Below, piece after piece: positions 6,784 through 31,115 of a DNA stretch of 37,738 nucleotides. Source of the DNA: an uncultured Bacteroidales bacterium (GTDB lineage Bacteria; Bacteroidota; Bacteroidia; Bacteroidales; JBBRXJ01); assembly GCA_964606415.1 (NCBI GenBank), contig CAZSGN010000002.1:1-37738 (forward strand). The letters are read 5' to 3'. Made by a program: the position numbers and the translations under genes. Position 1 is the first letter of the stretch. Every line of letters begins with the position of its first letter. The notes under the pieces were generated by a model. That model had not been told where the DNA came from and did no database searches. It was given only the letters and a program-made list of their open reading frames with translations.

Positions 6784-7206
6784 ATGAAAACAACCACGAA
6801 TCTTTCTTTATTAGTGTTTTTTGCATTAATGAATTTTGGTTTGATTAATGCTCAGGATGGTGCCAACATACACTTCCCTGAAGAAAAGCATGATTTCGGG
6901 ACCATTAAAGAAGTTGATGGTCCAGTATCTTATCATTTCGAATTCATTAACAAGGGAAAAGCTCCTCTTATCATCAAAGACGTAGATGCTACATGCGGAT
7001 GCACAACACCTGAATGGACCAAAAAACCAGTAATGCCAGGTCAAAAAGGGAGTATTAAAGCTATTTATGACCCCAAAGACAGACCGGGAACCTTTGAAAA
7101 AACAATTACAGTAAGCTCTAATGCTCAAAATAAAAACAAATATATATTAAAGATCAGCGGGGAAGTTGAACCTAAAGGATTACCCAAAATGAAACCACAA
7201 AAATAA
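6784..7206 (+). CDS. DUF1573 domain protein (single domain, secreted)
   Basis: Signal peptide followed by the HDFGTI...FEFINKGKAPLIIKDVDATCGCTTPEWTKKPVMPGQKG pattern typical of DUF1573 (CGCT motif). Confidence 0.85.
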   Translation: MKTTTNLSLLVFFALMNFGLINAQDGANIHFPEEKHDFGTIKEVDGPVSYHFEFINKGKAPLIIKDVDATCGCTTPEWTKKPVMPGQKGSIKAIYDPKDRPGTFEKTITVSSNAQNKNKYILKISGEVEPKGLPKMKPQK

Positions 7207-7343
7207 ATAGAGTTTGTCTATAAAGTCCAATTTACGAGAAAGAATAAGCCTTTCAAACGTAACATTTCAAACAAGCATATGTTTGATCGCATCATTTCTT
7301 TACTTTATAAACAGATTTTAAATAAAATAACCAGGATAGGATT

Positions 7344-8450
7344 ATGAATAAAAAATATATACAAAGCCTTTTTATATTATTATTTACAGCGCTTTCAAAT
7401 TTATCTGCACAGCAAATCGGGCCAAATATATCCTTTGAAAAGACCGTGCATGATTTCGGTCAAATAGAAGAAGAAGAAGGCCAGGCAACTTGCCGTTTTG
7501 AATTTATCAATACCGGCAATGAGCCTCTTATTATTAATAATGTGAGGGCCTCTTGTGGCTGCACTGCTTCCAAATGGACCAAAAAACCAGTAACCCCCGG
7601 AGAAAAAGGTTTTATCAAGGTTACTTACGATCCCAAAAACAGGCCCGGTAATTTCATGAAATCCATCAGTGTAAAAACCAATGCAAATGAAAAAAAATCC
7701 GAAATACTCAAAATCAAAGGCACTGTAATTCCCAAGCCGGAAACGCTTGCCCAACAATACCCCAGTGACATGGGACGACTAAGGCTTAAATCCAATCATT
7801 TGGGTTTCGGAAAAGTTTATAAAAATCAGGAGAAAACGAAAACGCTTGAGGTTATTAACTTTTCAGATAAAAACCCCATCAATGTTTCCTTCTCCAATGT
7901 CCCGGACTATATAGATATCAAAATAACCCCGGAAAAACTCAAACCAAAAAGTAAAGGAACGATTGAAGTCACATATAATGCTAAAAAAGTCAATGACTGG
8001 GGATTTGTAATCAATCGTATCAAAGTTGTTATTGATGATCAAAAAGATCAAAAACACCGTTTTACGATTAGCGCAAATATCACAGAAGATTACTCGAACT
8101 TAACACAAAAAGAACGCGCCAATGCGCCAAGAATCAAGTTCGACAAAGAAACTCATGATTTTGGGGACATACCGCAAAACAAAAAAGCCTCATCTAAATT
8201 TGAATTTACCAATACCGGTAAAACAGATTTAAAAATCAGAAAGATCAAATCAACCTGCGGATGCACCGTTGTTGAGCCTAAAGACAAGATACTTGGCCCC
8301 GGAGAAAGCAGTAGTCTGAAAGCAACATTTACACCGGGTAACCGAAAAGGCATCCAGAATAAAATCATCACCATCATTACCAATGACCCTTATCAATCTG
8401 TTAAGCGACTGTATTTAAAAGCAAATGTTGATCCTAAATTGGATCAATAA
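7344..8450 (+). CDS. DUF1573 domain protein (three tandem Ig-like modules; CGCT motif in the first and last)
   Basis: Signal peptide. The N-terminal module is nearly collinear with the 6784 product (HDFGQI...RASCGCTASKWTKKPVTPGEKG). The C-terminal module carries HDFGDI...KSTCGCTVVEP. Confidence 0.85.
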   Translation: MNKKYIQSLFILLFTALSNLSAQQIGPNISFEKTVHDFGQIEEEEGQATCRFEFINTGNEPLIINNVRASCGCTASKWTKKPVTPGEKGFIKVTYDPKNRPGNFMKSISVKTNANEKKSEILKIKGTVIPKPETLAQQYPSDMGRLRLKSNHLGFGKVYKNQEKTKTLEVINFSDKNPINVSFSNVPDYIDIKITPEKLKPKSKGTIEVTYNAKKVNDWGFVINRIKVVIDDQKDQKHRFTISANITEDYSNLTQKERANAPRIKFDKETHDFGDIPQNKKASSKFEFTNTGKTDLKIRKIKSTCGCTVVEPKDKILGPGESSSLKATFTPGNRKGIQNKIITIITNDPYQSVKRLYLKANVDPKLDQ

Positions 8451-8502: not shown

Positions 8503-9486
8503 TTACTGTGTTTCAATTAATTTTCTCACCATCTCGTTTTTGCCTATCTTAATCCGCAAAAAATAGACACCAGCGGAATGGCCTAATTCACGGGCGCTGA
8601 AAGCATGATCATAATCACCCGGGGAGAGATATTTATTTTGTAACTTAGCAACTGGGTTTCCAATCATATTAAACACAGCTATTTCAACTTTCTCAGATTT
8701 ATCCAGCGTATATCTTATAAAAACCTTATCTGTATATGGATTGGGGCCAATTGAAAGCTTATAGTTTTGCCCGGAAACTTTATCAAGGGAGTTACTCTCC
8801 TTTAACCGGTTATCTTCCAAATTGGAAATTGACTGGCTAAAAGGCCCTGAAGAAGCTTTAAATGAACTAATCGTTTCATTCAAATCAATGGTGTCCGGCA
8901 GAGGAATACTTACGGCGTAATAGTATAAAGAATCAAACACATCACTTGCAGTATCCCTGATAAAACTCAGGTTATCCTGAAAAGGAATTCGCATATATTC
9001 CTTTAAATCAGTAGAATCAGTGCTTCTATAAACGATAACTTCCTGACCTTGAAAATAAGAACTTAAATCCATATTCTCCATATCATAAAACTGAACATTC
9101 AAACCAAAAGTATCAGGATCAGCAATATACTTTTCAATAAACATAGTCTGATGATAATTGCTAACAACTGAATCACCTGTAGTTAAATGAACTTTAATGC
9201 GGTATTTATAAGACTGGCTTGAAGGGTCTGAAGTTTGATCAATAAATTGAGGATTTTCCGAGGGCCCCTGGCTATATATCTTTTGAAAACCATCACCATC
9301 CGTATCATTCCGGTAGATATCAATACTTGATACGGAAGAAGCCAATAAAGCATCCGGATTTTGCCAAACCACCATGTTTTTCCAGGTAGCAGTATCTATT
9401 GTAACAATAAAAGGCAACTGTTGTTGTGCAGAAAGTGAATAAAAAAGAAAACCTAAAAGACCTAAACAAAGTATTTTTTTTCTCAT
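8503..9486 (-). CDS. Secreted hypothetical protein with a T9SS type A C-terminal sorting domain
   Basis: Signal peptide MRKKILCLGLLGFLFYSLSAQ (ATG at 9486 preferred over 9543). C-terminal LSIGPNPYTDKVFIRYTL...GVYFLRIKIG...KLIETQ is a typical T9SS CTD. Confidence 0.8.
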   Translation of the reverse strand: MRKKILCLGLLGFLFYSLSAQQQLPFIVTIDTATWKNMVVWQNPDALLASSVSSIDIYRNDTDGDGFQKIYSQGPSENPQFIDQTSDPSSQSYKYRIKVHLTTGDSVVSNYHQTMFIEKYIADPDTFGLNVQFYDMENMDLSSYFQGQEVIVYRSTDSTDLKEYMRIPFQDNLSFIRDTASDVFDSLYYYAVSIPLPDTIDLNETISSFKASSGPFSQSISNLEDNRLKESNSLDKVSGQNYKLSIGPNPYTDKVFIRYTLDKSEKVEIAVFNMIGNPVAKLQNKYLSPGDYDHAFSARELGHSAGVYFLRIKIGKNEMVRKLIETQ

Positions 9487-9611
9487 ACGCTTAAATGTTT
9501 TTATAATTTTAAAACAAGTTATAACATTTTGATTATATATCATAAAAATCGAAATGCTTTTTTCAATTTTTCTTATCTTTACGACAATGAATAATCATTT
9601 GAAACCTTGAG

Positions 9612-12152
9612 ATGAAGTACACACCCACCATATTCTTCTTTCTTTTTTATTTAACTTTTAACTCCTATACCCAGGATAAAGTTGACAGTCTCCAATACCA
9701 ATTAAAAGATGCCGATGGTAAAGAAAAAACAAAAATCTACCTGGCACTTGCCGAAGCTAACGCGGAAAATAATTTCGAGGAAAGCATTAATTACAGCAAA
9801 GAAGCTCTTAATCTGGCACAAAAACAAAAAGACAAGCAATTAATAGCCAAAAGCTATCAAAAAATGGGGCAATCATATTATTATGATTATCAAAATGACA
9901 AGGCCATTGAGTATTACAAGAAAAGCCTTGATATACTAAAAGAAATAGATGACAAAAAAGGAATGATCTTTTCGCTAAATCATCTTGGGCTGACCCATTA
10001 TTTCAATAATGATTTCTCCAAATCCAAATCTTATCTTGAACAAGCAATAGCCTTAAATAAAAACGATCGTTTCCCTGAAGAAAAAGCTTTTTCTTATCGT
10101 TACCTGGGGCGAACGATTAATAAAACCGGTGACGCTAAAAAAGCAATGGACTATTATAAAAAAGCGCTCGGAATCTATCAGGATATTGACTCAAAAAAAG
10201 GGATTGCAGGCATCAGAAACAGCATTGGCTTAATCTATTTTGGCTGGGACCAATATGACTCAGCTATTGCTCAATATAAAATATCGGCCAAACTCAGAGA
10301 AACCTCCGGCGATCAAAAAGGCGCCGGAATAGCACTGGTCAATACCGGCAATGTCTACTGGCGCTGGGGGAAATACGATCAAGCCATCAGCAACTACCAG
10401 GAAGCTTCAAAAATATTTGAAGAGATTGGCTTCAAAAATGGCATTGCAAGTTGCCTTAATAATATCGGCCTTATATATGAAAATCTAACGAAAGGCTCTT
10501 TAACTGCAGCAAATCTAAAGAATTTCAAAAAAGCGATGCAATACCATCAAGAAGCGCTGAAAGTAAGAAAAGAGCTGGGTGATCAGTTGGAGATAGCCCA
10601 TTCGCTTAATAATATTGGCACTGTTCATATCAAAATACAAGAAAATAAACTAAAAGAAAAATTTGGCCAGAACTGGCGCGATTCTGTTCCCAAACTTAAA
10701 AAAGAAGAAATACCTCATTTCCATCAGGCACGGGAAAATTACCAGGAAGCCTACAACCTTTTCGAGGATGCCAATTATAAAGCTGGCATTGCCAAAGCCT
10801 TAAACAATTTAGGGCGGGTCCATGCATACCTCCAACAAAACAACAAAGCATTGCAAAACCTGGAACGGGCACTTCAAATTAGTAAAGAACTAAATAATCA
10901 ATATGAACTGGCTGTCAATTATTTTCAAATCGGCATTGCCCAAAAGCAAAAAGGGAATTATCAAAATGCACTGGAAAAATTAAATAAAGCACTGGACATC
11001 GCGAACAGAAACAACCTTAATGAATTCCGGAAATCTGCCTATGAGAACATCTCCGAAATCTATGAAGCTCAAAATAATTATCAATCTGCACTACACGCCC
11101 ACAAGCGCTTCATTGACGTAAGAGATAGTATTTTCAACCAGGAAAATGCCAAATTCATTGAAGAACTACAAACCAAATATCAAACAGATAAAAAAGAACA
11201 AGAGATCAAAATCCTGAATCAGGAACAAAAACTTAACGAACAACAAATCAGACAACAAAGATTATTCCTCTACGGTGCTATTGTCATCGTAATTGTTATA
11301 GGTGGCTTTTTGCTATTGGTTTTCAGACAAAACAATCAAATTAAAAAAGCCTATCAACTACTGGAAGAACGAAATACTTTAATCTCGAAACAAAAAGAAG
11401 AAATTACTGACAGCATCCACTATGCCAGCAGAATACAAAGAGCGGTCTTGCCTCAAACCAAAATGCTGGAAAAAAATCTTAATGACTTTTTTATTCTCTG
11501 GCGCCCGCGGGACATTGTCAGTGGTGACTTTTACTGGTTCACCGAACATCAGAACAAATTAATTATAGTTACGGCTGATTGCACCGGCCATGGGGTGCCC
11601 GGGGCTTTCATGAGCATGCTGGGTGTTTCCTTCCTGAATGAAATTCTATCCAGACATAAAGAAGTCCATGCAGAACAAATATTAAACGAATTGCGGGACC
11701 AGGTAATCAACTCCCTGCATCAAACAGGAAAAACAGGAGAAAGCTCTGATGGTATGGATTTGGCTCTTTATATCATGGACAGGGACAATATGAAACTTGA
11801 ATACGCCGGGGCAAACAACCCCCTGGTTATTATACGCAACAAGGAAATCATCCAATACAAAGCGGACAAAATGCCGATTGGCATCTATATAAAAGCAGAC
11901 ATCCCTTTCAAACGCCACGATATTGATATCCAGGAAGGCGATTGCATTTACACTTTTTCAGATGGTTACCAGGATCAATTTGGGGGCAAAGGAAAAAAAT
12001 TCATGATCAAACGAATGAAAAGCATGTTATTGGAAAATCATGATAAACCAATGACAGAACAAAAAGCGCTATATGATAAAACCATTGTTGACTGGATGGG
12101 CGAAGAATTCGAACAAATTGACGATATCCTTTTGGTGGGTGTACGGGTATAA
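9612..12152 (+). CDS. TPR-repeat / single-TM / PP2C-type (SpoIIE family) protein serine phosphatase
   Basis: N-terminal signal/anchor and many TPR-like repeats (A..Y..AL.I pattern). Coiled coil, then TM LFLYGAIVIVIVIGGFLLLVF. C-terminal SpoIIE/PP2C motifs SRIQRAVLP, SGDFYWF, ADCTGHGVPGAFMS, FSDGYQDQ, DDILLVGVRV. Confidence 0.9.
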   Translation: MKYTPTIFFFLFYLTFNSYTQDKVDSLQYQLKDADGKEKTKIYLALAEANAENNFEESINYSKEALNLAQKQKDKQLIAKSYQKMGQSYYYDYQNDKAIEYYKKSLDILKEIDDKKGMIFSLNHLGLTHYFNNDFSKSKSYLEQAIALNKNDRFPEEKAFSYRYLGRTINKTGDAKKAMDYYKKALGIYQDIDSKKGIAGIRNSIGLIYFGWDQYDSAIAQYKISAKLRETSGDQKGAGIALVNTGNVYWRWGKYDQAISNYQEASKIFEEIGFKNGIASCLNNIGLIYENLTKGSLTAANLKNFKKAMQYHQEALKVRKELGDQLEIAHSLNNIGTVHIKIQENKLKEKFGQNWRDSVPKLKKEEIPHFHQARENYQEAYNLFEDANYKAGIAKALNNLGRVHAYLQQNNKALQNLERALQISKELNNQYELAVNYFQIGIAQKQKGNYQNALEKLNKALDIANRNNLNEFRKSAYENISEIYEAQNNYQSALHAHKRFIDVRDSIFNQENAKFIEELQTKYQTDKKEQEIKILNQEQKLNEQQIRQQRLFLYGAIVIVIVIGGFLLLVFRQNNQIKKAYQLLEERNTLISKQKEEITDSIHYASRIQRAVLPQTKMLEKNLNDFFILWRPRDIVSGDFYWFTEHQNKLIIVTADCTGHGVPGAFMSMLGVSFLNEILSRHKEVHAEQILNELRDQVINSLHQTGKTGESSDGMDLALYIMDRDNMKLEYAGANNPLVIIRNKEIIQYKADKMPIGIYIKADIPFKRHDIDIQEGDCIYTFSDGYQDQFGGKGKKFMIKRMKSMLLENHDKPMTEQKALYDKTIVDWMGEEFEQIDDILLVGVRV

Positions 12153-13170
12153 AATAAACAATTCTTTCACCCGGATTCTATTCCTGGCTTTTCTTATTCT
12201 TTTTTACTCTTCAGGATGCGGAAGAAAAACCGATATGAAACTCGGGGTTGTTTTTGATACCTACCAAACTGATCGCTGGCAACGTGACAAAGCAATAATG
12301 AAAGAAATTGCTGATCAAAAAGGCATTCAACTCATGACAGCCGAAGCACAGGGAGATCCCTTTATACAATATGCACAAGCCAGAAAAATGATCAAAAATG
12401 GAGTAGATGTATTAATCATTATTGCTGTTGACCAAGACCTGGCTTCGCATATTGTAAATCTGTCAAATAATCATCATATACCGGTTATTGCTTATGACCG
12501 GCTAATAAATGATGCCAACCTGGACTATTACATATCTTTTAATCCAAGAGACATAGGGCATCTACAAGGCTCCTATTTCAAAAAACAAAAACCAAAAGGA
12601 AAATACATATTGATTAACGGGCCACGCTCAGACAATAATTCTACAAGAATACATCATGGACAATTAGAGGTTTTAAAAGAAGCAGACTCATCCGGATACT
12701 CAACAAATATTCTTTACCAGACATACTGTTCAGAATGGTCCGAATATCAGGGCTATCATCATATTCTAAACTGCATTGAAGCCTATGGTGCAAATTTTGA
12801 TGTCGTTATTGCAGGTAATGATCAAATTGCCCAGGGGGTGATCAGGGGGTTAGAAGAATATCAATTTCAACATGTATTGATTGGCGGACAAGACACCGAT
12901 TTGTCTTCCATTCGCTTTATATTAGATGGCAGACAAACCATGACGATCTTAAAACCAATCAGGAAAATTGCAGAAAAAGCCATTAATGCAGCAATAAGCC
13001 TTCATCATGACACTTTACCGGATCGTTTAATTAATCATCAGACAGACAACAATAAAGCAATGGTGCCAACTTTTTTCTTAAAGCCCATCATTGTAGATAA
13101 AGAGAACATTTTTCATGTTGTTAAAAAATATAAGCTAATAGATGAACCAATTAAAAATTTCGTCGAATAA
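12139..13170 (+). CDS. XylF-like periplasmic sugar-binding protein (type I PBP), predicted lipoprotein, without partner transporter genes
   Basis: Blocks DRWQRD, AYDRLINDANLDYYISFNP and GGQDTDLSSIRFILDGRQTMTILKPI parallel E. coli XylF as I recall it. Lipobox LFYSSGC. In-frame GTG at 12139 is preferred because it gives a 26-aa lipoprotein signal; the alternative ATG at 12073 would overlap the upstream gene by 80 nt. Confidence 0.8.
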   Translation: MYGYKINNSFTRILFLAFLILFYSSGCGRKTDMKLGVVFDTYQTDRWQRDKAIMKEIADQKGIQLMTAEAQGDPFIQYAQARKMIKNGVDVLIIIAVDQDLASHIVNLSNNHHIPVIAYDRLINDANLDYYISFNPRDIGHLQGSYFKKQKPKGKYILINGPRSDNNSTRIHHGQLEVLKEADSSGYSTNILYQTYCSEWSEYQGYHHILNCIEAYGANFDVVIAGNDQIAQGVIRGLEEYQFQHVLIGGQDTDLSSIRFILDGRQTMTILKPIRKIAEKAINAAISLHHDTLPDRLINHQTDNNKAMVPTFFLKPIIVDKENIFHVVKKYKLIDEPIKNFVE

Positions 13171-14447
13171 TGCAGTCACATGCCTTGTATATTCTGATCA
13201 TCCTTATATTTACATTTTTTCAGTCTACAAATAGTCAAGAAAGCAAAGACAGTACAGGAAAAGTTGATATTTTCCCCCTGCCCGTCATTGGGTATTCAGA
13301 AGACAGAGGAATAAAATACGGAGGGATGCTCGGCCTCTACCACTATTCAAAAGACCAACCAAAATCTGAATACAGAAATAAACTGGAGATTGAAGCAAGC
13401 AGAAGCACCAAAGGCAATCATTATTATTCGCTGGAACATCAATACAGAAATCTCCCAAAAGGTTTTAAATTATTCAACTATATCATCTATGACAAGAATA
13501 ATACTGCCCGTTTTTTCGGATTTAACAGCCAAACCCCTATTATGCAGGGACAGGATTTTGACCGTGCTTATTTCTCTTTCAACCGGCAAACATTTAAGGT
13601 ATCAAACAAATTTCACCTATTGATCATCCCCAGGCATCATATTTATCTTACCGGAGGACTCATTTATTATAACGCGAACATTTCTCCAACCAACCTGGAA
13701 AAACTCCCTGCTACATACTCAAACGACACGACCACCCTTTTCGATGAATACATTAAGCATTTAATTATACCAAAAGATGAAGTTAACGGTGGACAATCAT
13801 TATACGCGCAAGCAGGCCTGCTGATTGATAACAGAGAAAGACCTGTTAATCCCCAACGTGGCTACTTTTCGGAGATTATTTTCATTGCAGGACAAACAGA
13901 TCATACCATAAATAAAAATTTTATTAAAGCAAGTTTTACTCATCAACATTACCTTCCACTAATAAAAAACCGGTTAACAGGAGCCATCCGGATGAGCTAT
14001 CAACCACTCCTTGACGGAAAATTACCTTACTACATGCTGCCTGTCTTTTATAGTTCTATTCAGAATATTGAAGAATTAGGAGGCGAGAACACACTCCGGG
14101 GAATGAATCAAAACAGAATTCTTTCTGATGGCTTTCTCCTGAGTAACCTGGAACTTCGGTTAAGCCTTTGGGATCATACATTATTCAATTATGCTTATCA
14201 AACTTTTCTTGTATTATTTAGTGACATCGGCTTAATTACCCAGGAATACAATTATCCCCAACACCTATTACCCCCAACAATCAAACAAAACATATCAAGC
14301 AATCAATCACCTTATTACCAAACAATTGGAGCCGGGGCTTATGTTGTAATCAGGGAAAATATGGTTGCCAAAGCAGATATAGGAAAGGAAATTGACGCGC
14401 CATATCCTAACTGGTATATTTCTACCGGAATGCGCTTTTTGTTTTAG
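13170..14447 (+). CDS. Omp85/BamA-TamA family outer-membrane beta-barrel without POTRA domains
   Basis: Signal peptide, the surface-antigen (D15) motif LGGENTLRGMNQNR, and a C-terminal aromatic ...GMRFLF. The start overlaps the upstream stop (TAATG at 13168..13172). Confidence 0.75.
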   Translation: MQSHALYILIILIFTFFQSTNSQESKDSTGKVDIFPLPVIGYSEDRGIKYGGMLGLYHYSKDQPKSEYRNKLEIEASRSTKGNHYYSLEHQYRNLPKGFKLFNYIIYDKNNTARFFGFNSQTPIMQGQDFDRAYFSFNRQTFKVSNKFHLLIIPRHHIYLTGGLIYYNANISPTNLEKLPATYSNDTTTLFDEYIKHLIIPKDEVNGGQSLYAQAGLLIDNRERPVNPQRGYFSEIIFIAGQTDHTINKNFIKASFTHQHYLPLIKNRLTGAIRMSYQPLLDGKLPYYMLPVFYSSIQNIEELGGENTLRGMNQNRILSDGFLLSNLELRLSLWDHTLFNYAYQTFLVLFSDIGLITQEYNYPQHLLPPTIKQNISSNQSPYYQTIGAGAYVVIRENMVAKADIGKEIDAPYPNWYISTGMRFLF

Positions 14448-14552
14448 AAAAATATCTTTTTTTTAATAATTGCCTGAATAAAGAAAACACACGGACGGCT
14501 TATTTGCTGAAAATTATTTTATAAATTTACAGTATTATAAATGCAAGGATAG

Positions 14553-14960
14553 ATGAAACAATTAATAAGAAAAACAAGTAAAGAAACAAATTACTATCCC
14601 TTCATTGATTTTAATCCGGACACAGGAAAATGGATTATTTCCGGGGAATCATACATGGAAAACCCCTGTGATTTTTATGCTCCTGTCATTGAATGGGTCA
14701 AATCATTCATTGAAACCAAGGAAACACCTATTCATTTAAAAATACAACTAAACTATTTTAACACAAGCACGACCCGTTGTCTCCTCTCTATATTTAACTC
14801 AATAAGAAAACATAAGGAGATGGGAAAGACATACCGGATACAATGGGAATTAGAAGATGATGATCCTGGTTTAATTGAAGAAATAGAGGATTTACAAGTC
14901 GAAGCCAACGTTAAAATTAATATTATTGAAAAAAACAAAAGGGCTAAATACAATCACTAA
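14553..14960 (+). CDS. SiaC-like regulatory phosphoprotein (DUF1987 family), paralog 1
   Basis: 135 aa. GESYMENP...FYAPVIEWVKSF...LKIQLNYFNTSTTRCLL parallels P. aeruginosa SiaC (GDSYPEN...LLYLNTSS) as recalled. It is collinear with the paralog at 30016..30405. Confidence 0.75.
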   Translation: MKQLIRKTSKETNYYPFIDFNPDTGKWIISGESYMENPCDFYAPVIEWVKSFIETKETPIHLKIQLNYFNTSTTRCLLSIFNSIRKHKEMGKTYRIQWELEDDDPGLIEEIEDLQVEANVKINIIEKNKRAKYNH

Positions 14961-15013
14961 TTCATAACCTCAAGAATATTTATATGCAAATAACCAACTT
15001 CAAAAACAAAAAA

Positions 15014-15589
15014 ATGAGGATTAAAAACTTATTTATCCTGATTCTCGTCCTGCCTCTTTTAAGCAGTTGCGGCTACAATAAAATGGTCACCCTGGATGAA
15101 CAAATAGCTGCCCAGTGGGGACAGGTTGAAAATGTTTACCAGCGAAGAGCAGACCTGATTCCGAACCTTGTAAATACAGTAAAAGGGTATGCTGATTTTG
15201 AGAAAGAGACGCTTACAGAAGTTATAGAAGCCCGCTCAAAGGCTACATCTGTTAATGTAGATCCAGATAAACTGTCGCCAGGTTCAATCCAACAATTTCA
15301 GCAAGCTCAACAGGGATTAAGCTCAGCCTTGAGCAGGTTAATGGTTGTGGTCGAGCGATATCCTGAATTAAAAGCAAACCAAAACTTCCTGGATCTACAA
15401 GCTCAACTGGAAGGCACAGAGAACAGGATTAGTGTTGAGCGGCGAAAATACAATGAAGCGGTTCGCCAATATAATACTTATATCCGCAGTTTCCCGAGAA
15501 ATATCCTTGCCTCCATTTTTAATTTTGAAAAGAAAGGCTATTTTGAGGCTGACGAAGGCGCATCTAAAACCCCAGAAGTAAACTTTTAA
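15014..15589 (+). CDS. lemA: LemA family protein (lipoprotein/anchor)
   Basis: MRIKNLFILILVLPLLSSCGYN, then LDEQIAAQWGQVENVYQRRADLIPNLVNTVKGYADFEKETL, typical of LemA. ATG at 15014 is preferred over 14984. Confidence 0.9.
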   Translation: MRIKNLFILILVLPLLSSCGYNKMVTLDEQIAAQWGQVENVYQRRADLIPNLVNTVKGYADFEKETLTEVIEARSKATSVNVDPDKLSPGSIQQFQQAQQGLSSALSRLMVVVERYPELKANQNFLDLQAQLEGTENRISVERRKYNEAVRQYNTYIRSFPRNILASIFNFEKKGYFEADEGASKTPEVNF

Positions 15590-15590
15590 C

Positions 15591-16025
15591 ATGGAAGCAA
15601 TAGACAAGTTCACCCCCGAAGAACGAAAACGTATTACCAACGCCATAGAAGAGGCCGAACTGGATACATCCGGAGAAATCAGGGTGCATATTGAAAATCA
15701 CTGCAAAGGTGAAGTACTGGATCGTGCAGCCTTTTTATTCAAAAAACTAAAAATGCATCAAACCCTCTTAAGAAATGGCGTTCTGATTTACCTTGCATTA
15801 AAGGATCACCAATTTGCCATATTGGGTGATGCCGGCATTAATGAAAAAGTACCGGAGGGATTCTGGGACGATATCAAAGATAAAATGCTGAAACATTTCC
15901 GTGAAGAAAATTACACCCAGGGCCTTGAAGAAGGCATCCGTGATGCCGGCAAACAGCTTAAAGAACATTTTCCCTATCAAAAAGATGATATCAATGAACT
16001 AAAAAATGATATTTCTTTTGGCTGA
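15591..16025 (+). CDS. TPM (TLP18.3/Psb32/MOLO-1) domain protein, soluble form
   Basis: GEIRVHIE...NGVLIYLALKDHQFAILGDAGI is a TPM-domain pattern. The gene lies immediately after LemA (2-nt gap), the usual LemA-TPM arrangement. Confidence 0.8.
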   Translation: MEAIDKFTPEERKRITNAIEEAELDTSGEIRVHIENHCKGEVLDRAAFLFKKLKMHQTLLRNGVLIYLALKDHQFAILGDAGINEKVPEGFWDDIKDKMLKHFREENYTQGLEEGIRDAGKQLKEHFPYQKDDINELKNDISFG

Positions 16026-16075
16026 TAATCACCTTTCACAGTGATACATGCTTAATGTAAAAAAAAACAAAAACC

Positions 16076-16864
16076 ATGAAATTAACTCATTCTATATTTC
16101 TATCCTTTTTATTATTACTATACCAGGCTCCCCTGGCAGCCATCCCTGAAAAACCAAGCCCTCCAAAGCTGGTTAACGACTTTGCCAACTTTCTGCCCAA
16201 GGACAAGAGCCACCAGCTGGAACAAATCCTAAAAGATTTCGAGCAAAAAACATCGACTCAAATTGCCGTAGTCACAGTAAAAGATCTTGAAGGATACGCG
16301 ATTTCAGACTATGCTTTTCGGCTTGGAGAACAATGGGGTATTGGCCAGGAGAAAAAAGACAATGGCATTCTGATCCTCATAAGGCCAAAAACAAAAGACA
16401 CCAAAGGACGAGCTTTTATTGCAACAGGCTATGGCCTGGAAGGAGCCGTGCCGGATGTGGTTGCCAAAAGAATCGTAGACCAGGAAATGATTCCAAGATT
16501 TAAAGAAAACAAATATTACGAGGGCATACTGGCCTCCGTCAAAGTACTCTTTGAGCTAACAAAAGGAGAATACACAGCCGAGCAATACATCCAACAAAAA
16601 GAATCAACCAACCTCGCCCCCTTAATTATATTAGCCATTCTGTTGTTTATTGTTATTCGTAATCTTTCAAGAGCCAACCGCTACAGAAAAAGATCAGTCG
16701 GACACAGCATGCCTTTCATGACAGCTTTATTCCTGGGATCAGCAATGGGCTCAGGCCGTGGCAGCTGGAATAACTTTAGCTCAGGCGGAGGCGGCGGAAT
16801 GGGCGGCTTCGGTGGCTTTGGCGGCGGCGGATTTGGCGGTGGTGGTGCTGGAGGCAGTTGGTAG
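16076..16864 (+). CDS. TPM domain protein, YgcG-like (signal peptide, TM, Gly-rich tail)
   Basis: LVNDFANFL...TSTQIAVVTV...NGILILI...FIATGYGLEGAVPD is a TPM pattern. TM LAPLIILAILLFIVI. C-terminal GGGGGMGGFGGFGGGGFGGGGAGGSW. Confidence 0.85.
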   Translation: MKLTHSIFLSFLLLLYQAPLAAIPEKPSPPKLVNDFANFLPKDKSHQLEQILKDFEQKTSTQIAVVTVKDLEGYAISDYAFRLGEQWGIGQEKKDNGILILIRPKTKDTKGRAFIATGYGLEGAVPDVVAKRIVDQEMIPRFKENKYYEGILASVKVLFELTKGEYTAEQYIQQKESTNLAPLIILAILLFIVIRNLSRANRYRKRSVGHSMPFMTALFLGSAMGSGRGSWNNFSSGGGGGMGGFGGFGGGGFGGGGAGGSW

Positions 16865-20692: not shown

Positions 20693-22036
20693 TTACTGTG
20701 AAAAGAAAAAATCTTTTAACTGATCTATTTCTTCCGAAGTCATATCAATTTCGCCATTAAAAAAACGATCCATAGCACTAAGCACCTCGTCAAAAGACAG
20801 ATAACCATCATCATCCTTGTCAAATTGTTTATACTTATCCGGAATTTCGACATTAGAAATTGCCGCGTAATATTTATTGCTTAAACTACTCCGCATAATG
20901 GCTTTCACATCCTCACGATCAACCGCCTTATTATTGAGCATTTCGATCAAATCATCGCTGCTCAGGGCCACACCATGCTCGTTCACCCAAGCACCTTCAG
21001 GAGTATCTTCCTCCTTATCAAGATAATTAGGCACACCATCATTATCATCATCAAAGGGACAGCCTACAGAATCAACTTCCACGCCATCCGGAGTTCCCGG
21101 GCATTCATCAACCCGGTCAAAAACCATGTCATTATCTTCGTCACCATACATGGTATAATCAAAATCAACATCAGCAAAAAGCTTTTTTACAGTTGTTGTT
21201 TCATCATCCGAAAACAAATCATAATGAAAAGTTACATAGCTGAAACCATACATATCATTTCCTTTCTTTCCAATAACACCTTTCGTGTTTTTATGGCTGA
21301 CATGATCAATCAAATCGGTCAGGGCATAGTGTAAAGAAGTACCAATCATTAAATTAGCCCTGTCTGTAACTTTAAAATCTACACCTATCTCAAAAGGAAT
21401 GGCCAGCGAATTTTGCGCATACTTTCCAAGGCCATAATCCAATTCCTGGCGGACATCTGTCTCATAACTATAATCGCGTGTAATGATATCCCCTTGCGTA
21501 TTTCTAATGGTGCCATCCGGGTAAAACTGATAAGCATCTCCATTATCCGCGTAAATATCTGTTTTTGTAACAAATTGAAACAACTCAATACCTGCACTAA
21601 CAAAAGGATGGATGGTCTTTTCAGGAGGAATAATGTGTTCAAAACTATATTGAATGTTCAGTCCAAATGTAGTAAACTCGGAACTAAAATTCATCTGCTC
21701 AGAGATTGGGGTATATTGCTGTCCTGATAACTTTCCTAACAAAAGAATAAAAAAGTTACTTTTAAAAAAATGATCATTATCAAGAAAAGTCGATACATTA
21801 ATTTTAACAGCACTATTTCCACTAAGCATAGGTTGCTTATTCTTTATATCACCATAATATCTCAATACCCCAGGACCAACACCGAACACAGGCATATAAA
21901 CCGGATTCTCAACCTCTACTTCTTCTTCCAGCAATTTTTCATAAAGATCTTCTTGCGCCTGTCCCCATTCAGGGAAAACAAAGACAAGCACTAATCCCGT
22001 CAAGAAAAATCTTAAAAAATTAGTTACCTGTACCAT
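20693..22036 (-). CDS. Outer-membrane beta-barrel protein with thrombospondin type 3 repeats and a C-terminal EF-hand (OmpA-like architecture lacking an OmpA_C domain)
   Basis: Signal peptide ...PEWGQAQ and an alternating-hydrophobic barrel region. TSP3 repeats DEDNDMVFDRVDECPGTPDG and DDDNDGVPNYLDKEED. Canonical EF-hand loop DKDDDGYLSFDE. Confidence 0.7.
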   Translation of the reverse strand: MVQVTNFLRFFLTGLVLVFVFPEWGQAQEDLYEKLLEEEVEVENPVYMPVFGVGPGVLRYYGDIKNKQPMLSGNSAVKINVSTFLDNDHFFKSNFFILLLGKLSGQQYTPISEQMNFSSEFTTFGLNIQYSFEHIIPPEKTIHPFVSAGIELFQFVTKTDIYADNGDAYQFYPDGTIRNTQGDIITRDYSYETDVRQELDYGLGKYAQNSLAIPFEIGVDFKVTDRANLMIGTSLHYALTDLIDHVSHKNTKGVIGKKGNDMYGFSYVTFHYDLFSDDETTTVKKLFADVDFDYTMYGDEDNDMVFDRVDECPGTPDGVEVDSVGCPFDDDNDGVPNYLDKEEDTPEGAWVNEHGVALSSDDLIEMLNNKAVDREDVKAIMRSSLSNKYYAAISNVEIPDKYKQFDKDDDGYLSFDEVLSAMDRFFNGEIDMTSEEIDQLKDFFFSQ

Positions 22037-29427: not shown

Positions 29428-29841
29428 TCATTCCACAAGAATCACTTCTTTAGCAAAAAGCCCTTTTTTCGATATCAACTGAACCAAATAGAAACCACCA
29501 TCCAGTTCCTGCCTGTCAAATTCAAAAACATGGTCGCCAGACTGCATTTCTTTCGACTCAACCAAACTCCTAATCTCACGCCCCTGCACATCATATAGTT
29601 TAATCGTAACACGATCATTTTCATCTAAAGTGAAATTAACCGTTGACTCTTTTCTAAAAGGATTGGGATAAATTAATATAGACATATTGTCTCTCTTGAC
29701 TGTAACCATTAAAGTATCCTCAGTAATGCCTGTTAAATTTTTAACATTACTGTCCTGCTCAGCATGGCTATCATCTTTTGCATTCACAGTCATACAAAAG
29801 ACCAAGACAAACCATATTAAACTCAAGAGAAATGCCTTCAT
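29428..29841 (-). CDS. Minimal T9SS cargo: signal peptide, ~35-aa acidic segment and a type A C-terminal sorting domain
   Basis: Signal peptide ...MTVNA|KDD. The CTD pattern ILIYPNPFRKESTVNFTL...VTIKLYDVQGREI...GFYLVQLISK...KEVILVE accounts for most of the 137 aa. Confidence 0.75.
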   Translation of the reverse strand: MKAFLLSLIWFVLVFCMTVNAKDDSHAEQDSNVKNLTGITEDTLMVTVKRDNMSILIYPNPFRKESTVNFTLDENDRVTIKLYDVQGREIRSLVESKEMQSGDHVFEFDRQELDGGFYLVQLISKKGLFAKEVILVE

Positions 29842-30015: not shown

Positions 30016-30405
30016 TCACTCATTCATAGGAATCTTATTAATTTCCATATCAGTCTCTACACTGTAATCATGAATATCATCCAGCATATCATAATCTTCA
30101 GGATCATAATACCAATTAACCGTCACACCAGCTCCTTTGGTCTTATACTCGTATAAAATTTCAAGCATATAGAGCAACATTTTAGATGAACTGGTGTTGT
30201 AATAGATTAATTTAATATTCAATTCAAAATCACCCTTATCTTCAGCCACATATTGTTTCATCCATTCTAATACGGGCATGTAGAAAGCATTAGGCTCTTC
30301 CATAAAAGACTCACCCTCAATCACTCCCATCCCCATTTCAACACTAAGACGAACAACAGGCGAATAAGGTTCATCAACAATTCTATTTATTACAAGATTT
30401 TCCAT
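30016..30405 (-). CDS. SiaC-like regulatory phosphoprotein (DUF1987 family), paralog 2
   Basis: 129 aa. GESFMEEP...FYMPVLEWMKQY...LNIKLIYYNTSSSKMLL. It aligns without gaps to the 14553 product, with GES[Y/F]ME at 31-36 and N70-T71-S72 in both. Confidence 0.75.
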   Translation of the reverse strand: MENLVINRIVDEPYSPVVRLSVEMGMGVIEGESFMEEPNAFYMPVLEWMKQYVAEDKGDFELNIKLIYYNTSSSKMLLYMLEILYEYKTKGAGVTVNWYYDPEDYDMLDDIHDYSVETDMEINKIPMNE

Positions 30406-30581
30406 TGGCCTAGTCCCCCTGTACTATGAAAAAGAAACATAATAAACATTTCATTCTCCCTATTATTTATTAAACGAACGAGCTCATTTTAAGATAATCA
30501 TCAACTATATCCGGATATATACACAAAAAAAGCTTTGAGGTTATGGTCTATATCAATGCTAAATGAATTCATATAAACCTT

Positions 30582-31115
30582 CTATTTATCATTGTCAATG
30601 CCTATTTTCAGAAAAAACCAGGCACTCTGACCATCACTCATATCAAAAAAATCATATTCCAGTTTACCATCAGCGATTAATGCTGCTTGTATCAACCCTA
30701 CATTGGCACCTGTTTTTTCCTTAATAACCCTTTTCCGGTTATTTCTTTTAAAATCTCTCAATTCCTCACGCTCCAATTGATTAATTTTCATGCAACGATC
30801 GTTCAGGAATTGCTGATTTTTTTTCTCAATAAGATTTCCTGAAACAATATAGTAACTATCATTTTTCTTTTCCAAAGCAAGCATACCAACACCAGCATCT
30901 TTATCCAAACGCTTAATACGCTGCCCGGAATAATGATAAATATTGTGAGAAATCTCAATGAATACACTAATGATTCTTTTTCTAAGTGCAGCCTTCAAAG
31001 AGCAAGCATTAATAAACTCTATAAAAAGAGTTATAACCTGATTATCTACAATCCCCTTGTAAGACCAGACTAAGTCCTGACCCAAAACCTTATGATATCT
31101 ATAATTATCAATCAC
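30582..31115 (-). CDS. Small GHKL-like protein kinase candidate, SiaB-like
   Basis: 177 aa, directly upstream of a DUF1987 gene as in siaB-siaC. EISHNIYHY resembles the N-box (ExxxNxxH) of SpoIIAB/RsbW-type kinases and KTGANVGL resembles a G2-box. The assignment is by architecture and weak motifs only. Confidence 0.55.
   Translation of the reverse strand: MIDNYRYHKVLGQDLVWSYKGIVDNQVITLFIEFINACSLKAALRKRIISVFIEISHNIYHYSGQRIKRLDKDAGVGMLALEKKNDSYYIVSGNLIEKKNQQFLNDRCMKINQLEREELRDFKRNNRKRVIKEKTGANVGLIQAALIADGKLEYDFFDMSDGQSAWFFLKIGIDNDK

Follow-up and report, generated by a model that had tools for sequence, protein, structure and literature searches.

A candidate dispersed SiaABC-type partner switch enclosing a XylF-like lipoprotein gene in an uncultured Bacteroidales bacterium

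Four tightly packed forward-strand genes in a contig of an uncultured Bacteroidales bacterium encode a sensor phosphatase, a XylF-like lipoprotein, an Omp85-family barrel and a DUF1987 (SiaC-like) protein, raising the question of whether they form one envelope signalling system or bring unrelated functions together. The original prediction, made from the letters of the 37,738-nucleotide stretch analysed here (contig CAZSGN010000002.1 of GenBank assembly GCA_964606415.1; hereafter the window), proposed a sugar-sensing partner switch in which the binding protein acts as co-sensor for the phosphatase, an idea that we now consider unlikely. Instead, domain content and comparative gene neighbourhoods make it rather probable that the window encodes the scattered parts of a SiaABC-type partner switch acting through threonine phosphorylation. 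Such switches lacking a cyclase are common in Bacteroidota-like genomes; here the gene order would have been scrambled, with the lipoprotein and barrel genes as a lineage-specific insertion or rearrangement. The data give no support to a new sugar-sensing system.

Components of a probable SiaABC-type switch

The four open reading frames (ORFs) and their spacings (−14, −1 and +105 nucleotides) were confirmed as originally described. Specifically, the reading frame starting with GTG at position 12139 shares 14 nucleotides with the end of the phosphatase gene, a TAATG at 13168-13172 forms the lipoprotein/barrel junction with a 1-nucleotide overlap, and a gap of 105 nucleotides precedes the start of the first SiaC gene (SiaC1) at 14553. 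Pfam and NCBIfam profile searches of the window proteins, with ORFs of at least 120 amino acids screened for domains, bore out all four of the domain identities proposed before. Scans for σ70 promoters and terminators returned the same counts as shuffled sequence (the σ70 scan does not cover Bacteroidota promoters), and the repeats flanking the lipoprotein and barrel genes, sought as a sign of a mobile element, were only short, chance-level ones.

The phosphatase combines a TPR region of about 500 amino acids (TPR_12 in nine stretches) with a PP2C domain at residues ~576-846, within which the SpoIIE model matches residues 648-846 (2.4e-19) and the metal-binding motifs DCTGHG, DGYQD and DDILLV are present. 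Its hydropathy profile displays one strong transmembrane helix (residues 552-570) and a signal-like N-terminus, so that the TPR array is predicted to lie outside the cell, in the periplasm, and the PP2C domain in the cytoplasm, in agreement with the topology initially envisaged. The NCBIfam SiaA model NF038263 matches the protein at 7.6e-54 (model positions 389-657; 183 bits, below the 700-bit equivalog cutoff), and the best PDB match of the catalytic part is the PP2C domain of Pseudomonas aeruginosa SiaA (6K4E, 3.4e-38), with SpoIIE reaching only about 1e-4. Judged by these matches, the catalytic domain is specifically SiaA-like. There is no second PP2C among the screened ORFs of the window.

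The remaining components of a SiaABC-type switch are represented as well. SiaC1 matches PF09345 at 2e-32, as expected of the SiaC-like protein recognized at the outset, and a second copy (SiaC2) encoded on the other strand matches at 3e-33. The threonine of the NTS motif is kept in both copies (Thr71 in SiaC1) and aligns with T68 of P. aeruginosa SiaC, the residue to which SiaB adds phosphate and from which SiaA removes it (PMC7647112). Most metagenomic SiaC proteins score higher against SiaC2 than against SiaC1, and by this measure SiaC2 is the more canonical copy. Upstream of SiaC2, across a 176-nucleotide spacer, lies a SiaB-family kinase gene (DUF6272, 3.8e-30; NF038262, 112 bits for a cutoff of 85; PDB 6KKO chain A, 1.7e-7). 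No phosphatase gene adjoins this kinase-SiaC2 pair, which is located 15 kb from SiaC1. Thus, the presence of a SiaA-like PP2C, a SiaB and two SiaC proteins, as identified by profile matches, gives the window a full but dispersed SiaABC set. The kinship to the Sia phospho-switch that had been proposed is upheld by the SiaA-model and 6K4E matches together with the T68-equivalent threonine, and the PP2C and SiaC-like parts stand; the kinase and the second SiaC (30016-31115, reverse strand) had been missed. No GGDEF domain occurs among the screened ORFs, in line with the earlier statement that a cyclase is absent. The next gene after SiaC2 on the same strand (29428-29841) encodes a 137-amino-acid protein with a type IX secretion system (T9SS) C-terminal sorting domain.

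By analogy with P. aeruginosa SiaABC, SiaB would phosphorylate the conserved NTS-motif threonine of SiaC, the PP2C would strip this phosphate when the TPR ectodomain receives an envelope signal, and unphosphorylated SiaC would bind and modulate a target other than a cyclase. We infer this direction of signal flow, the role of both SiaC copies as substrates of this PP2C and of SiaB, and co-transcription. DUF1987 proteins have been proposed to modulate adjacent proteins (PMC8457831), on which basis one may speculate that the LemA and TPM proteins encoded just after SiaC1 are its targets.

Table 1 Features of the putative switch and its surroundings in the window
Feature	Position	Strand	Length and matches
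SiaA-like sensor phosphatase	9612-12152	+	846 amino acids; TPR_12 + SpoIIE
XylF-like type I periplasmic binding lipoprotein	12139(GTG)/12073(ATG)-13170	+	Peripla_BP_4, xylF TIGR02634
POTRA-less Omp85-family barrel	13170-14447	+	425 amino acids; PF01103, NF047779
SiaC/DUF1987 adaptor, paralogue 1 (SiaC1)	14553-14960	+	135 amino acids; PF09345
LemA-TPM-TPM trio	14984-16864	+	begins 23 nucleotides past SiaC1
SiaC/DUF1987 adaptor, paralogue 2 (SiaC2)	30016-30405	-	PF09345
SiaB-family protein kinase (DUF6272)	30582-31115	-	NF038262, PDB 6KKO chain A

Gene neighbourhoods in related genomes

Across 80 metagenomic SiaC loci, with neighbours counted only where the contig leaves room, SiaB lies directly 5' of SiaC in 62 of 65 cases and PP2C directly 5' of SiaB in 31 of 41, making TPR-PP2C→SiaB→SiaC the usual gene order in this survey. 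About 45 of the 80 loci include a PP2C gene. The six PP2Cs next to SiaB that were tested all combine TPR and PP2C and have, according to hydropathy, a transmembrane helix before the PP2C domain, and four of them display a hydrophobic N-terminal segment (a signal-like N-terminus was missed in L113, and the first hydrophobic segment of L107 is found at residues 69-87). A GGDEF gene follows SiaC only in distant loci (L159-L175; 30-36% identity) and the nearer loci end at SiaC, so the missing cyclase is typical of the clade and not special to the window. Some of the surveyed modules are more elaborate: a REC-PP2C gene directly precedes TPR-PP2C-SiaB-SiaC in L113, L117, L120, L142, L145 and L157, amounting to two phosphatases per module (the REC domain was confirmed by Pfam for the first three and inferred from the two-PP2C pattern for the others), and L132, L133, L137 and L138 carry SiaB-SiaC-SiaB-SiaC-SiaC arrays suggestive of multi-branch switches, with a divergent PP2C upstream in all but L133.

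In the window, the place usually taken by SiaB, between the phosphatase and SiaC1, is filled by the lipoprotein and barrel genes, which are probably co-transcribed with the phosphatase. Our gene-neighbourhood comparisons indicate that conservation of the switch does not extend to these two genes. Homologues of the binding protein, the barrel, LemA or TPM occur in none of the 80 metagenomic SiaC loci. Conversely, starting from the binding protein, six-frame ORFs within 10 kb were searched with the window proteins in 83 loci (80 from GTDB representative genomes, plus L001, L003 and L006), and PP2C, SiaB, SiaC or this barrel was found near none of them, nor was a LemA or TPM homologue in the 80 GTDB loci. 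The binding protein, PP2C and SiaC are likewise absent from all four barrel-homologue contexts examined, and no binding protein was found near a PP2C in about 48 PP2C-carrying loci. The central inference of the original prediction, in which the four genes make up one system with the binding protein as co-sensor, consequently finds no comparative support: the block recurs in none of these binding-protein, SiaC and barrel loci, an outcome that the original prediction itself had listed first among those that would refute it.

The nearest genome below near-identity, GCA_038248505.1, has orthologues of the phosphatase and of the binding protein, which lie on different contigs. The best phosphatase match (P0134), taken together with the preceding ORF, is colinear with the window phosphatase (41% identity in the TPR part, 62% in the catalytic part) and adjoins the DUF1573-DUF1573-isochorismatase-SIS-ADH block found next to the window gene too, and is therefore its positional orthologue; it is followed by no binding protein, barrel or SiaC gene. 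This orthologue (L013 669-3260) is split into ORFs of 419 and 430 amino acids at a T-run (TTTTTTGTAA), reflecting either a sequencing error in the metagenome-assembled genome or a pseudogene. On the other contig, a 45%-identical binding-protein orthologue lies directly 5' of LemA-TPM-TPM (L001 9505-11323) with no PP2C, barrel or SiaC there, which identifies the barrel and SiaC1 as the extra genes that separate the binding protein from the trio in the window. Two further Bacteroidota binding-protein loci lack PP2C, barrel and SiaC, and two other TPR-PP2C loci (L014 and L015) lack the binding protein, the barrel and SiaC. The PP2C-binding protein-barrel junctions recur only in two contigs that are 86-88% identical to the window in DNA (L176 and L177), neither of which extends to SiaC, and synteny at this identity is expected by default. 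L177, the 88%-identical contig, differs from the window in the spacer that follows the barrel gene (1371-1493), which closes with a GC-rich hairpin (CCCGCTGAAAAGCGGG), possibly a terminator that is absent from the window.

The genes further out in the window include, immediately 5' of the phosphatase, those for two tandem DUF1573/HYDIN-like Ig proteins (6784-8450, forward strand) and a T9SS cargo protein (8503-9543, reverse strand); the stretch with the DUF1573 genes is syntenic with L013. A 447-amino-acid protein (20693-22036, reverse strand) matches a PorG-like barrel and, over a short stretch, the PA1041 family of peptidoglycan-binding anchor lipoproteins; a pair of EF-hands lies at its C-terminal end.

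The lipoprotein, the barrel and competing explanations

The binding protein matches Peripla_BP_4 at 4.7e-42, and its best named model is xylF (TIGR02634, 236 bits, under the 390-bit equivalog cutoff); among structures it matches 4YWH from Actinobacillus (7e-54) and 3M9W, Escherichia coli XylF (2.3e-48). It retains the family-invariant residues R46, W47, D120, R121, D165, N167, W200, D252 and K272, which we take to be the xylose-contacting positions of the E. coli XylF structure. The gene caller places the start at an internal methionine (12235; 311 amino acids). We favour the upstream GTG start, and hence a lipoprotein, because the cysteine of its YSSGC lipobox aligns with a cysteine in 13 of 14 homologues having the N-terminal extension (the exception being P0107; a fifteenth, P0002, was called from an internal methionine), and because an 86%-identical contig preserves the open frame of the extension, including a lipobox (FSSGC). 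The sequence after the lipobox cysteine, GRKTD, is presumably unlike the acidic export signal of Bacteroidota lipoproteins.

No ABC importer gene occurs among the screened ORFs of the window, in which the sole ABC_tran match is UvrA, and none, including xylGH, lies within 5 kb in 12 Bacteroidota binding-protein loci. By contrast, most loci from outside Bacteroidota have a permease of about 10 transmembrane helices just 3' of the binding-protein gene, as expected of an ABC operon. Such downstream permease ORFs served as the ABC criterion, a regular-expression search for ABC ATPases being too insensitive for the CUT2 type. Thus, the early description of this protein as a XylF-like orphan with a lipobox and no transporter genes holds, and the orphan status extends to its Bacteroidota relatives. 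The closest homologues are 81% identical (on a 1.2-kb contig), then 45% and then 35-40%. Their neighbourhoods in Bacteroidota are varied, with DUF2520-HAD-Maf upstream in several and an S46 peptidase, a sulfatase, a fucosidase or a GMP reductase elsewhere. From these heterogeneous neighbourhoods, devoid of both ABC and PP2C genes, it follows that the protein belongs to a Bacteroidota-wide sequence family of orphan lipoproteins that occurs in varied contexts and does not normally travel with a phosphatase. In Marinilabiliales-type genomes (L003, L022, L024, L030, L034 and L047), the orphan lipoprotein gene terminates a conserved DUF2520-HAD (KdsC-like) hydrolase-Maf array, and what lies downstream varies (S46 peptidase, sulfatase). 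A 435-amino-acid gene downstream of the binding protein in L003 was considered as the same barrel and rejected (BLASTP E = 0.48). Many Firmicutes loci (L020, L025, L029, L039, L043-L045, L048 and others) contain two XylF-like binding-protein genes, adjoining in most, which is reminiscent of a transporter binding protein paired with a XylFII-type sensor binding protein. A literature search on orphan binding proteins in Bacteroidota returned nothing, and the Halosquirtibacter paper names XylFII-LytS solely among its references.

The barrel exceeds the Omp85 cutoff (PF01103, 27 bits for a cutoff of 24) and matches the whole 423-position model NF047779 at 2.6e-50 (172 bits, below the 200-bit cutoff). 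It carries a signal peptide, a conserved L6-type LRG motif (R310 and G311 invariant) and a C-terminal phenylalanine. In its AlphaFold model (pLDDT 70, pTM 0.71), the first of 16 strands starts at residue 31, immediately behind the signal peptide, so that a POTRA domain would not fit, and the best Foldseek matches in the PDB are the barrels of Sam50, BamA and TamA. As modelled, the protein is a POTRA-less 16-strand member of the Omp85 superfamily, as first proposed. Only 13 homologues were found; the family is rare and fast-evolving.

Several observations weigh against a dispersed SiaABC-type switch with two unrelated envelope genes inside it. The catalytic domain of the phosphatase is nearer to paralogues unlinked to SiaB or SiaC (P0134 and others, 55-62% identity; REC-PP2Cs, e-69 to e-87) than to SiaB-adjacent TPR-PP2Cs (e-44 to e-63), and for this reason its pairing with the SiaC proteins of the window is only putative. 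The −14 and −1 start/stop overlaps speak for coupled translation of the phosphatase, binding-protein and barrel genes in this organism, the two junctions concerned are kept in the 86-88%-identical contigs, and a signalling binding protein typically has its gene next to that of its receptor (PMC8050422). Finally, a single genome represents intermediate distances, so that the rearrangement may be read as an insertion here or a loss there.

Three other explanations can be envisioned, all of them improbable to different degrees. The one that survives best, though still unlikely, is that the genes adjoin without any functional significance: the seven genes from the PP2C to the second TPM, all on one strand, would be compactly arranged but unrelated, and the PP2C would act on substrates other than the SiaC proteins of the window. 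The PP2C catalytic-domain family is indeed very large (at least 7994 matches below 1e-10) and its N-terminal sensors are interchangeable (TPR, Y_Y_Y, PAS, REC and cNMP-binding), SiaB and SiaC are missing from the surroundings of the closest phosphatase relatives (L013-L015), and synteny with GCA_038248505.1 is broken at several points. This explanation has to contend with a catalytic domain that is specifically SiaA-like, with TPR-PP2C-SiaB-SiaC being a recurrent operon, and with a window that holds one SiaB, two SiaC proteins and, among its screened ORFs, no other PP2C.

Slightly less probable is that the lipoprotein and barrel form a two-gene envelope module of their own, unrelated to signalling, that landed inside the Sia cluster; for instance, the barrel could serve to insert or anchor the lipoprotein or to expose it at the surface, or both together could capture sugars at the outer membrane. 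The TAATG overlap coupling the two genes, the BamA/Sam50-like nature of the barrel (including the L6 LRG motif) and the absence of both genes from canonical Sia loci are consistent with such a module, whereas the pair itself is not conserved, with no detectable homologue of this barrel in the 83 binding-protein loci and no binding protein in the four barrel loci, and the GRKTD that follows the lipobox cysteine is presumably unlike the acidic export signal.

The least probable is the co-sensor model, in which the XylF-like lipoprotein, recruited in this lineage, would bind a pentose or hexose, dock on the periplasmic TPR array of the SiaA-type PP2C as in LuxP-LuxQ, TorT-TorS and XylFII-LytS, tune the phosphatase and thereby set the phosphorylation of SiaC1 as output adaptor, with the barrel serving ligand entry or complex assembly. 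It draws on the gene overlaps that suggest co-translation, the retention of the junctions in close relatives, the lack of terminator-like sites on the forward strand between the genes (although scan counts equal those of shuffled sequence), the true orphan status and conserved family-invariant residues of the binding protein, the predicted periplasmic position and protein-binding fold of the TPR array, and the usual placement of signalling binding proteins next to their receptor (PMC8050422). We consider it doubtful at best, given that co-conservation does not extend beyond about 86% DNA identity (none of 83 binding-protein and 80 SiaC loci), that three further PP2C loci lack the binding protein, that the phosphatase and binding-protein orthologues are unlinked in the nearest genome, that the same TPR-PP2C architecture occurs elsewhere with no adjacent binding protein and hence no need of a co-sensor, and that the model left out the kinase and the second SiaC.

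Significance and comparison with known systems

No part of the block represents a new protein family, and the SiaABC logic is already known. The TPR-sensor, cyclase-less form of SiaABC is uncharacterized but widespread, and the arrangement in the window is a lineage-specific variant of it; a search of the literature on Sia modules outside Pseudomonas found nothing. If the window does hold a dispersed SiaABC-type switch, it exemplifies a widespread and unstudied class whose output, for lack of a cyclase, must differ from the synthesis of cyclic di-GMP (c-di-GMP), and finding that output would carry the DUF1987/SiaC adaptor concept beyond Pseudomonas. The comparison also brings to light XylF-like lipoproteins that form a family throughout Bacteroidota and are encoded away from transporter genes. 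A PP2C stimulated by a binding protein, unlikely as it is, would be new, because the 2021 review of binding-protein-dependent sensing lists no PP2C phosphatase example (PMC8050422). Should the co-sensor model nevertheless prove true, it would be the first binding-protein-stimulated Ser/Thr phosphatase and a new class of binding-protein-dependent receptor, and would suggest that many orphan Bacteroidota binding lipoproteins are detachable ligand modules for the abundant TPR-type membrane sensors of this phylum.

Among known systems, the barrel resembles BamA, TamA and Sam50 in its 16 strands and conserved L6 (V/L)RG motif (Foldseek probability 1.0, TM-score about 0.5-0.6), and differs from them in lacking POTRA domains and in a sequence identity of only 11-15%. 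The binding protein shares the fold, family and invariant polar and aromatic positions of the D-xylose ABC-transporter binding proteins (E. coli XylF and Actinobacillus 4YWH). Unlike them, it is a lipoprotein, scores under the xylF equivalog cutoff and has no xylGH nearby, either here or in the 12 Bacteroidota loci. As in XylFII-LytS, LuxP-LuxQ, TorT-TorS, ChvE-VirA and GlnH-GlnX-PknG (PMC8050422; XylFII-LytS also PMC5547591), a type I binding protein with no transporter has its gene right next to that of a membrane sensor possessing an extracytoplasmic domain. By contrast, the output of those sensors is a histidine kinase, a chemoreceptor, a GGDEF/EAL protein or a Ser/Thr kinase, and their pairing is conserved across species, which that of the window is not.

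The likeness to SiaABCD of P. aeruginosa (PA0172-PA0169; PMC7647112, PMC8457831) comprises a PP2C whose best PDB match is 6K4E, a SiaB-family kinase, a DUF1987/SiaC protein with the phosphorylatable threonine in the same NTS motif, and a membrane-anchored phosphatase with an extracytoplasmic sensor. Conversely, the sensor in the window is a long TPR array with one transmembrane helix and not the two transmembrane helices and HAMP domain of SiaA, there is no SiaD diguanylate cyclase or GGDEF gene, SiaC is present as two paralogues, and the genes do not form one operon, the kinase and SiaC2 being encoded 15 kb off on the opposite strand and the SiaB position being taken by two unrelated genes for envelope proteins. 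Set against the uncharacterized metagenomic TPR-PP2C-SiaB-SiaC operons (L096-L158), in which the three genes are contiguous, the phosphatases measure about 580-670 amino acids and no binding-protein or Omp85 gene is present, the window stands out by its split arrangement, its 846-residue phosphatase and its two additional envelope genes, but it shares with these operons a phosphatase composed of signal peptide, TPR array, transmembrane helix and PP2C domain, the same SiaB and SiaC families, and a SiaC that is followed by no cyclase.

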